Shown in pieces: positions 1-3,000 of a stretch of DNA of 64,000 nucleotides. This stretch comes from Escherichia coli O127:H6 str. E2348/69. Lineage in GTDB: Bacteria > Pseudomonadota > Gammaproteobacteria > Enterobacterales > Enterobacteriaceae. Within the stretch, counting starts at the first letter, position 1. Every line of letters begins with the position of its first letter. The stretch lies in assembly GCF_000026545.1 (NCBI RefSeq), contig NC_011601.1; one strand, written 5' to 3'. The position numbers were made by a program.

Positions 1-3000
1 CAGGCGCTGAACAACCGACTGGCGCGTCACGGCGAGAAAAAAGCCGTCACCGTGGTGACTCAGGTGGAAGTGGATAAAAACGATCCGGGGTTTGCCCATC
101 CCACCAAGCCCATCGGCGAATTCTTTAGTGAAAGCCAGCGTGACGAACTACAAAAGGCAAACCCTGACTGGCGTTTTGTTGAAGATGCCGGACGGGGCTA
201 TCGCCGCGTGGTCGCCTCGCCGGAACCGAAACGTATTGTCGAAGCACCAGCCATTAAGGCGCTGATCCAACAAGGCTTTGTGGTGATTGGCGCGGGCGGC
301 GGCGGAATTCCGGTAGTGCGTACTGACGCGGGGGATTACCAAAGCGTGGACGCGGTTATCGACAAAGATCTCTCTACCGCGCTACTGGCTCGCGAAATTC
401 ACGCCGACATTCTGGTGATCACCACTGGCGTCGAAAAAGTGTGTATTCACTTTGGCAAACCGCAGCAGCAGGCGCTGGATCGCGTAGATATTGCCACCAT
501 GACCCGCTATATGCAGGAAGGGCATTTCCCACCTGGCAGCATGTTGCCAAAAATCATCGCCAGCCTGACGTTCCTGGAACAGGGCGGCAAAGAAGTGATT
601 ATCACCACGCCGGAATGCCTGCCTGCGGCGCTACGCGGCGAAACGGGCACCCATATTATTAAAACCTAAGGACGTAAGATGAAAGAAAACAATAGCCGCC
701 GTGAATTTCTGAGCCAGAGCGGTAAGATGGTCACCGCCGCCGCGCTGTTTGGTCCCTCAGTGCCGCTCGCCCATGCGGGGGTAGCTGGCACCCTAAACTG
801 CGAAGCGAACAACACCATGAAAATCACTGACCCGTATTACTATCTCGATAACGTGCTGCTGGAAACCGGTTTTGACTACGAAAATGGCGTGGCGGTACAG
901 ACCCGCACGGCGCGCCAGACCGTGGAGATTCAGGACGGTAAAATTGTTGCCCTGCGCGAGAACAAGCAGCATCCGGACGCCACGCTGCCGCACTATGACG
1001 CTGGCGGTAAGCTGATGCTGCCCACCACCCGCGACATGCATATTCATCTCGACAAAACCTTCTACGGCGGGCCGTGGCGCTCGCTCAATCGTCCGGCAGG
1101 CACCACTATCCAGGACATGATCAAACTCGAGCAGAAAATGCTGCCGGAACTGCAACCGTACACGCAGGAACGGGCGGAAAAACTGATCGATTTATTGCAG
1201 TCGAAAGGCACCACCATTGCCCGCAGCCACTGCAATATCGAACCGGTTTCCGGCCTGAAAAATCTGCAAAATTTGCAGGCGGTGCTGGCGCGACGTCAGG
1301 CGGGCTTCGAGTGTGAAATCGTCGCCTTCCCGCAGCACGGTTTGCTGCTGTCGAAATCGGAACCCTTAATGCGCGAAGCGATGCAGGCGGGGGCGCATTA
1401 TGTCGGCGGGCTGGACCCGACCAGTGTCGATGGCGCGATGGAAAAATCCCTCGACACCATGTTCCAGATTGCGCTGGACTATGACAAAGGCGTCGATATT
1501 CACCTGCACGAAACCACGCCGGCAGGCGTGGCAGCCATCAATTATATGGTTGAAACAGTGGAGAAAACGCCGCAGCTAAAAGGCAAGCTGACCATCAGTC
1601 ACGCCTTTGCGCTGGCAACGCTCAACGAACAACAGGTAGATGAACTGGCGCACCGGATGGTGGCGCAGCAAATTTCTATCGCCTCGACGGTGCCGATTGG
1701 CACGCTGCATATGCCGCTCAAACAGTTGCACGACAAAGGCGTAAAAGTGATGACCGGCACCGACAGCGTTATCGACCACTGGTCGCCTTACGGCCTGGGC
1801 GACATGCTGGAAAAAGCCAATCTGTACGCGCAGCTCTATATTCGTCCTAACGAACAGAACCTCTCCCGCTCTCTGTTTTTAGCCACTGGCGATGTATTGC
1901 CGCTCAACGAAAAAGGCGAGCGCGTGTGGCCCAAAGCGCAGGATGATGCCAGCTTTGTGCTGGTGGACGCCTCCTGTTCCGCCGAGGCGGTGGCGCGTAT
2001 TTCGCCGAGAACGGCGACGTTCCATAAAGGGCAACTGGTGTGGGGAAGTGTGGCAGGTTGATATGCATTTAATATGTCTGCAACGGTGAACAGTAAGAGA
2101 TTTAAGCCCCAGGGAGTGGGGCGGCCTGAGTATGAGTGTGTTGGCAGAAATGGACATTATCTTTGAAGAATATGCCCTTATTGACGTTGTGTAGATAACT
2201 ATTTGTCTACGTGAAAATATCATCAGTTTTGCCGATTTTTGTCTTTTACGGATAGCAAATATCACACTTATAGGCGCTCGCCTTATGGGGAACGTTGCTG
2301 CTCTGTTTCATTCAGGCTCGCGGCATGTTGGGGCTGGATCGGGTGGTTTAAATATTGGCTATATTCAATGGACGCGTTTTGCCGCGATGACATATCAGGC
2401 ATCGCCAAATACACATAGCTAATCAGGAGTAAACACAATGAAGATCAAAGCGTGCATATTCCGCTAAACAACCGCTTGAACCGATGGATATCACCCGGCG
2501 TGAACCGGGACCGCATGATGTCAAAATCGAAATCGCTTACTGTGGCGTCTGCCATTCCGATCTCCACCAGGTCCGTTCGGAGTGGGCGGGGACGGTTTAC
2601 CCCTGCGTGCCGGGTCATGAAATTGTGGGGCGCGTGGTAGCCGTTGGTGATCAGGTAGAAAAACATGCGCCGGGCGATCTGGTCGGTGTCGGCTGCATTG
2701 TCGACAGTTGTAAACATTGCGAAGAGTGTGAAGACGGGCTGGAAAACTACTGTGATTACATGACCGGCACCTATAACTCGCCGACACCGGATGAACCGGG
2801 CCATACTCTGGGCGGCTACTCACAACAGATCGTCGTTCATGAGCGATATGTTCTGCGTATTCGTCACCCGCAAGAGCAGTTGGCGGCGGTGGCTCCTTTA
2901 TTGTGTGCAGGAATCACCACGTACTCGCCGCTACGCCACTGGCAGGCCGGGCCGGGTAAAAAAGTGGGCGTGGTCGGCATCGGCGGTCTGGGACATATGG

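Follow-up and report, generated by a model that had tools for sequence, protein, structure and literature searches.

The window analyzed here, a stretch of 64,000 nucleotides from the chromosome of Escherichia coli O127:H6 strain E2348/69 (positions 320001–384000 in record NZ_LT827011.1), contains the gene order yahG–yahI–yahJ–yahK–(yahM)–yahN–yahO–prpR. In K-12, YahK (b0325, AdhZ2; PDB entry 1UUF) is a CAD-like, zinc-dependent, medium-chain NADPH-dependent aldehyde reductase. The E2348/69 gene is orthologous to E. coli yahK by both sequence and gene neighborhood. It sits in the same yahJ–yahK–...–yahN–yahO–prpR arrangement as its K-12 counterpart, the flanking 3.7 kb is 95.9% identical to K-12 at the DNA level, and the match to the PDB structure has an E value of 4.7e-238.

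On the plus strand, the native yahK Shine–Dalgarno (SD) sequence, AGGAG at 2425–2429, is unchanged and is the same in all of the genomes that we aligned. The start codon that it serves is ATG at 2438–2440. Translation of 2438–2470 gives nine sense codons from this ATG (MKIKACIFR), closed by TAA at 2465–2467. Within this short remnant of the native frame (2438–2467, plus strand), authentic yahK sequence is limited to codons 1–4 and two bases of the fifth, and the remainder is read out of frame. The main yahK frame can be followed from 2454, where it reads AYSAKQPLEPMDITRREPG..., and it stays open until TGA at 3480–3482. Codons 8–17 of the gene (AYSAKQPLEP, 2454–2483, plus strand) are stranded in this frame without an upstream start codon. 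The earliest start codon in the main frame, according to the ORF list, is ATG at 2484 (322484 in NZ_LT827011.1), which corresponds to Met18 of intact YahK. From this ATG, an ORF of 332 codons plus TGA runs to 3482 on the plus strand and is the RefSeq coding sequence WP_000355698.1.

The five-base deletion

We aligned positions 2400–2520 of the window to the same region of K-12 MG1655, MCJCHV-1, RM14723, and 2015C-4136CT1. The alignment contains a single gap, five columns wide. Where the other genomes have AAAGC-TGTTG-GTGCA, the window has AAAGC-GTGCA, with the junction between 2451 and 2452. Removal of TGTTG at this point was found by script to be the sole 5-nt deletion that converts the intact sequence to that of the window. 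The lost bases are nucleotides 15–19 of the intact coding sequence, in codons 5–7, and their absence sets the gene apart from K-12 yahK: the native frame ends after nine codons, and a 332-residue ORF from Met18 is left. Re-insertion of TGTTG gives 1050 nucleotides, or 350 codons, whose translation is the intact 349-residue allele of RM14723 (WP_000692733.1) followed by a stop. The lesion thus has the two features expected of a frameshift pseudogene, a gap that is not a multiple of three (5 bp) and a stop at codon 10 of the native frame. The script found no microhomology at the ends of the deletion. Because microhomology is lacking and the placement is unique, no slippage mechanism is evident.

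These results bear out a preliminary description of the locus, made from the sequence of this strain alone, which had proposed an SD-preceded ATG at 2438 with a stop after nine codons, continuation of yahK to 3482 in the next frame, a 5-bp loss of TGTTG after AAAGC that shifts the frame, and a length of 350 codons once those bases are restored. The N terminus that it gave for intact YahK, MKIKAVGAYSAKQPLEPMDIT, equals that of K-12 YahK and of 1UUF. The comparison that it recommended, with yahK genes from several E. coli genomes, is the alignment given above, in which the deletion is seen against all four comparison genomes.

The same description had left three outcomes open, namely a pseudogene, a restart at Met 2484, or an assembly indel. 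The last of these would mean that a single record lacks the five bases through faulty sequencing or assembly. Although single indels near the starts of genes are, in general, a frequent assembly artifact, nothing specific to this site supports such an error, and we regard it as extremely improbable. First, the 181-base stretch around the yahK start is matched at 100% in three complete RefSeq chromosomes, namely E. coli E2348/69 (NZ_CP059840.2), O127:H6 "EPEC E2348/69 variety 2" (NZ_LT827011.1), and the engineered derivative EPEC1 (NZ_LT903847.1); PMC5685641 gives no sequencing details for LT827011 or LT903847. Second, the exact 332-residue product is recorded in 42 blocks of an assembly collection and also on a 4,965,553-bp contig, and all six further contigs that we took from those records carry the deleted form. 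These six comprise three NCBI drafts, the Logan assemblies of ERR3587294 and ERR14002501, and the ENA assembly ERZ773354, with assemblies of Illumina runs among them. Third, one or two SNPs, at 5372, 5657, or 5988, separate four of the six from the window. Because its carriers have distinguishing SNPs, the deletion is inherited within a small clade rather than peculiar to a single stock or assembly. Finally, the alignment shows that the deletion site is not a homopolymer. The lesion is therefore real and inherited, being present in nine independent records or contigs of differing sources and runs, some with private SNPs, and the assembly-indel option is ruled out.

The three SNP positions themselves fall in yahO and prpR, and they separate the other deletion-bearing isolates from E2348/69. 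A T at 5657 is common to four deletion-bearing isolates and may be a sublineage marker.

The pattern is not due to chance, and the deletion is confined to a narrow group. Of 5,426 complete E. coli genomes, 4,992 align to 80% or more of the 181 bases surrounding the start. A junction probe of 48 bases, with 24 on each side so that megablast cannot seed on the intact gene, matches 3 of the 5,426, all belonging to the E2348/69 group. At the protein level, the truncated form is found on 16 contigs, versus at least 1000 for the intact allele. Six other complete genomes (RM14723, 2015C-4136CT1, 382634_2f, 377323_2f, EC12, and Z1323HEC0355) are 100% identical to the window over the downstream 999 bp, and the 48-base probe detected the deletion junction in none of these six. 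For RM14723 and 2015C-4136CT1, the intact 5′ end and the 349-residue coding sequence were aligned directly. Over window positions 1948–4060, their B2-type allele (WP_000692733.1, also present in others) shows no base difference apart from the 5 bp; unlike the window, it has TGTTG and encodes the full 349 residues. The nearest genomes outside the E2348/69 group, at 99.4% identity over 10 kb, also have yahK intact.

Since an identical downstream 999 bp accompanies intact yahK elsewhere, the deletion is recent and clone-specific. It arose within the O127:H6 E2348/69 clone, and the gene has otherwise stayed unchanged since. Further disabling mutations, another common mark of pseudogenes, are not seen, the downstream 999 bp being the same as in intact alleles. 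The lack of a second lesion fits a very recent event, but it leaves no independent sign of relaxed selection.

In kind, the event is an ordinary one. yahK is already a well-characterized gene, and its loss here is a lineage-specific frameshift of a sort common in pathogenic E. coli clones. As in the pathovars of E. coli and Shigella, whose frameshift pseudogenes it resembles, a dispensable metabolic gene has taken up a small frameshifting indel that is now fixed in one pathogenic clone. It differs from pseudogenes of that group in being very young, without a second lesion, and in its position at the 5′ end, where it escapes the pseudogene flag.

The retained frame and the lost N terminus

The 332-residue product still matches both Pfam ADH_N and Pfam ADH_zinc_N. 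The residues assigned from the MDR family as catalytic zinc ligands (Cys40, His62, and Cys158) and as structural zinc ligands (Cys93, Cys96, Cys99, and Cys107) are all present, in columns that are at least 90% conserved in 43 homologs. Also inside the retained ORF, in the numbering of the intact protein, are the zinc-MDR signature GHEIVGRVVAVGDQV at residue 61 and the nucleotide-binding motif GIGGLG at residue 182; the motifs have been defined as GHEX2GX5(G,A)X2(I,V,A,C,S) and GX1–3GX1–3G, respectively (PMC3684718). The intact sister allele differs from K-12 YahK at 8 of 349 residues and keeps all motifs. NCBIfam has no YahK-specific model, and the intact and truncated proteins both score below the Ahr and AdhP cutoffs, so that these models do not bear on function.

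What the retained ORF excludes is the beginning of the catalytic domain. In an AlphaFold model of intact YahK, built with 43 homologs and with a mean pLDDT of 96.7, strands are predicted at residues 2–8 (β1), 16–21 (β2), and 29–39 (β3). According to this model, a product without residues 1–17 would lose β1 with the loop that follows it, as well as residues 16 and 17, with which β2 begins. A complete protein, from the native start through β1, is thus encoded by neither frame, as the native one ends after nine codons and the ORF that is left begins at Met18.

The lost segment is present in all aligned homologs of 38–69% identity, with a conserved pattern: position 5 is A/G, position 6 aromatic or aliphatic, position 7 A/G, position 8 A/V, position 15 L/F, and position 17 P. 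This alignment consists of full-length homologs that we selected, and hence we added a less biased count, using the best 150 representatives from a library of 1.84 billion proteins. The match reaches the C terminus in 106 of the best 150, and the whole N-terminal segment fits in 83 of these 106. The 23 shorter representatives start at positions scattered from 5 to 125, in the manner of contig-end fragments, and no class starting near the Met18 equivalent is found among the best 150. In all solved PDB homologs, too, residues are present N-terminal of the Met18 equivalent.

The signals for translation differ sharply between the two start codons. In duplexes with the anti-SD sequence of 16S rRNA, the region before ATG 2438 reaches −6.9 kcal/mol, versus a best value of +0.4 kcal/mol in the 20 nt upstream of ATG 2484; random positions in the window average −2.4. 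Those 20 nt thus yield no SD-like helper for the restart codon, and the spacer between the short-ORF stop and ATG 2484, ACAACCGCTTGAACCG (16 nt, 2468–2483, plus strand), contains no SD-like sequence. Nor is there another place for the main frame to begin. It opens after TGA at 2439–2441, and in codons 2442–2483 there is no ATG, GTG, TTG, or near-cognate start before the ATG at 2484.

Bacterial ribosomes can terminate and then reinitiate about 16 nt farther on without an SD, as in the restarts that follow early lacI nonsense mutations, but restarts of this sort are usually inefficient. Here, the geometry is of the right type, with an in-frame ATG 16 nt beyond the premature stop, and reinitiation across this spacer is the one plausible way in which a YahK-like protein could arise. 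Restart at 2484 is nevertheless expected to be poor. A scan for consensus promoter and terminator sites found none in 2000–3700, a result that has no bearing on transcription.

Consequences for YahK

The explanation that we favor, and consider quite probable, is that a real, clone-specific frameshift has abolished or severely reduced YahK, making the gene a young pseudogene that is tolerated since yahK is dispensable and aldehyde reductases overlap. Initiation would still take place at ATG 2438 behind its unchanged SD, but the ribosomes would terminate at 2465–2467 after a peptide of nine residues. Codons 18–349, although intact, would be translatable only from the SD-less ATG 2484, 16 nt past the stop, and any product started there would lack residues 1–17. 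The outcome would be a null or strongly weakened allele, not yet further damaged, with little or no active enzyme likely to be made. With several NADPH-dependent aldehyde reductases that overlap, E. coli would tolerate the loss. In this connection, the ΔyahK strain of the Keio collection is viable, and another aldehyde-reducing activity was detected in its extract (PMC3684718). We infer that loss of YahK is neutral.

Alternatively, the allele could be functional. If ribosomes reinitiated at ATG 2484 after the nine-codon ORF, the 332-residue YahK without its 17 N-terminal residues might fold and reduce aldehydes. We think this unlikely, although several features can be cited in its favor. In the classical lacI and T4 rIIB restarts, translation resumes after early nonsense or frameshift mutations, and yahK shares with them a premature stop just 16 nt upstream of an in-frame ATG. 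Unlike those systems, however, yahK has no SD-like helper, as the value of +0.4 kcal/mol before 2484 indicates, and the product of its restart is only hypothetical. PGAP lists 2484–3482 as a YahK coding sequence and not as a pseudogene, but automatic annotation would choose the longest ORF regardless. The product would keep the zinc-MDR signature, the GxGxxG motif, and its cysteine and histidine zinc ligands, and ADH_N and ADH_zinc_N still match; yet β1 and part of β2, which are conserved in the family and confidently modeled, would be gone, and the best 150 representatives show no class that begins near the Met18 equivalent. The downstream ORF is without further lesions, as if still under selection, but the recency of the event explains this equally well. 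Last, an N-terminal His tag is tolerated: N-terminally His-tagged YahK is active (PMC3684718), and the N terminus is thus at least accessible. Of these considerations, the absent SD and the loss of conserved β1 favor inactivation over restart.

Two further proposals can also be framed around the same deletion. In one, the nine-codon ORF would serve as a leader, and SD-less reinitiation at Met18 would give a stable and active Δ1–17 YahK, in which case a CAD-like MDR enzyme would be shown to withstand the loss of its first β-strand. In the other, loss of YahK would have been positively selected in the EPEC O127:H6 clone. Taken as alternatives to each other, we hold it quite improbable that either is correct.

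Programmed recoding, in which a +1 ribosomal frameshift within codons 5–9 would restore near-full-length YahK, has in its favor that a ribosome leaving the 2438 frame would have to shift by +1 to read the main frame, but its probability is negligible. The configuration is not conserved among orthologs, as would be expected of a prfB-type site, but limited to one strain lineage (3 of 5,426), with more than 4,900 genomes having a plain in-frame gene. Inspection revealed no prfB-type slippery motif, and the bases directly before the stop contain no internal SD. With CGC in the P site, re-pairing on GCU, the codon in the +1 frame, is not possible, and the product would carry altered residues. Programmed +1 frameshifting is excluded because the arrangement occurs in one clone only and has no slippery site.

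Annotation and neighboring sequences

RefSeq, through PGAP, annotates 2484–3482 as a normal coding sequence, "NADPH-dependent aldehyde reductase YahK" (WP_000355698.1), in all three E2348/69 records, with no pseudogene flag. The preliminary description had held that reference alleles with this exact sequence and an annotated start at 2484 would refute the lesion. Formally, such an annotation exists, but it is an automatic call on the same strain, and the claim of a deletion is unaffected by it. The PGAP start amounts to the restart reading as adopted by software, and it does not speak for production or activity of the short form. In the literature on E2348 and enteropathogenic E. coli, we found no mention of a yahK deletion and no proteomic, expression, or activity results for this allele; the E2348/69 genome paper lay outside that search.

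The main value of the finding is for annotation and strain bookkeeping, and new biology is not implied. E2348/69 is the prototype EPEC laboratory strain, and a gene that RefSeq lists for it as intact, with 332 residues, is most likely a frameshifted pseudogene. For this strain, YahK is best taken as probably missing in metabolic models, in pan-genome tables of presence and absence, and in work on aldehyde tolerance. More generally, frameshifts in the first few codons evade pseudogene flags, a weakness that this case exemplifies; here, the shift goes unflagged because the longest remaining ORF still spans 95% of the protein. In addition, the junction sequence is a handy clone-specific marker for the E2348/69 lineage.

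Several other features of the surrounding DNA were observed in the course of this work. Upstream of yahK, yahJ (885–1947) has 40–41 differing sites in RM14723 and 2015C-4136CT1, in contrast to the identity of these genomes to the window that sets in at 1948, apart from the 5 bp. This pattern suggests a recombination boundary inside yahJ near 1947. In the 376-bp spacer between yahJ and yahK, PGAP places a 75-bp partial pseudogene at 2277–2351 ("hypothetical protein, missing N-terminus"), and this element is also found in genomes with intact yahK.

Downstream, yahL is absent at 3704–3705, where this strain lacks, between yahK and the yahM region, an 835-bp segment of K-12 (L007 3671–4505) that contains yahL (b0326). 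yahM (4104–4347) is "frameshifted" according to RefSeq in all three E2348/69 records and in MCJCHV-1, and in MCJCHV-1 yahG is also frameshifted and yahN has an internal stop. These lesions show repeated decay of genes in this neighborhood among B2-type strains.

An Rfam search of the whole window found no families near yahK. Farther along the plus strand, it identified two adjacent copies of naRNA4 (RF02564), a family that we take to derive from REP elements, at 12941–13017 and 13035–13111, with scores of 70.2 and 68.3 bits, respectively.
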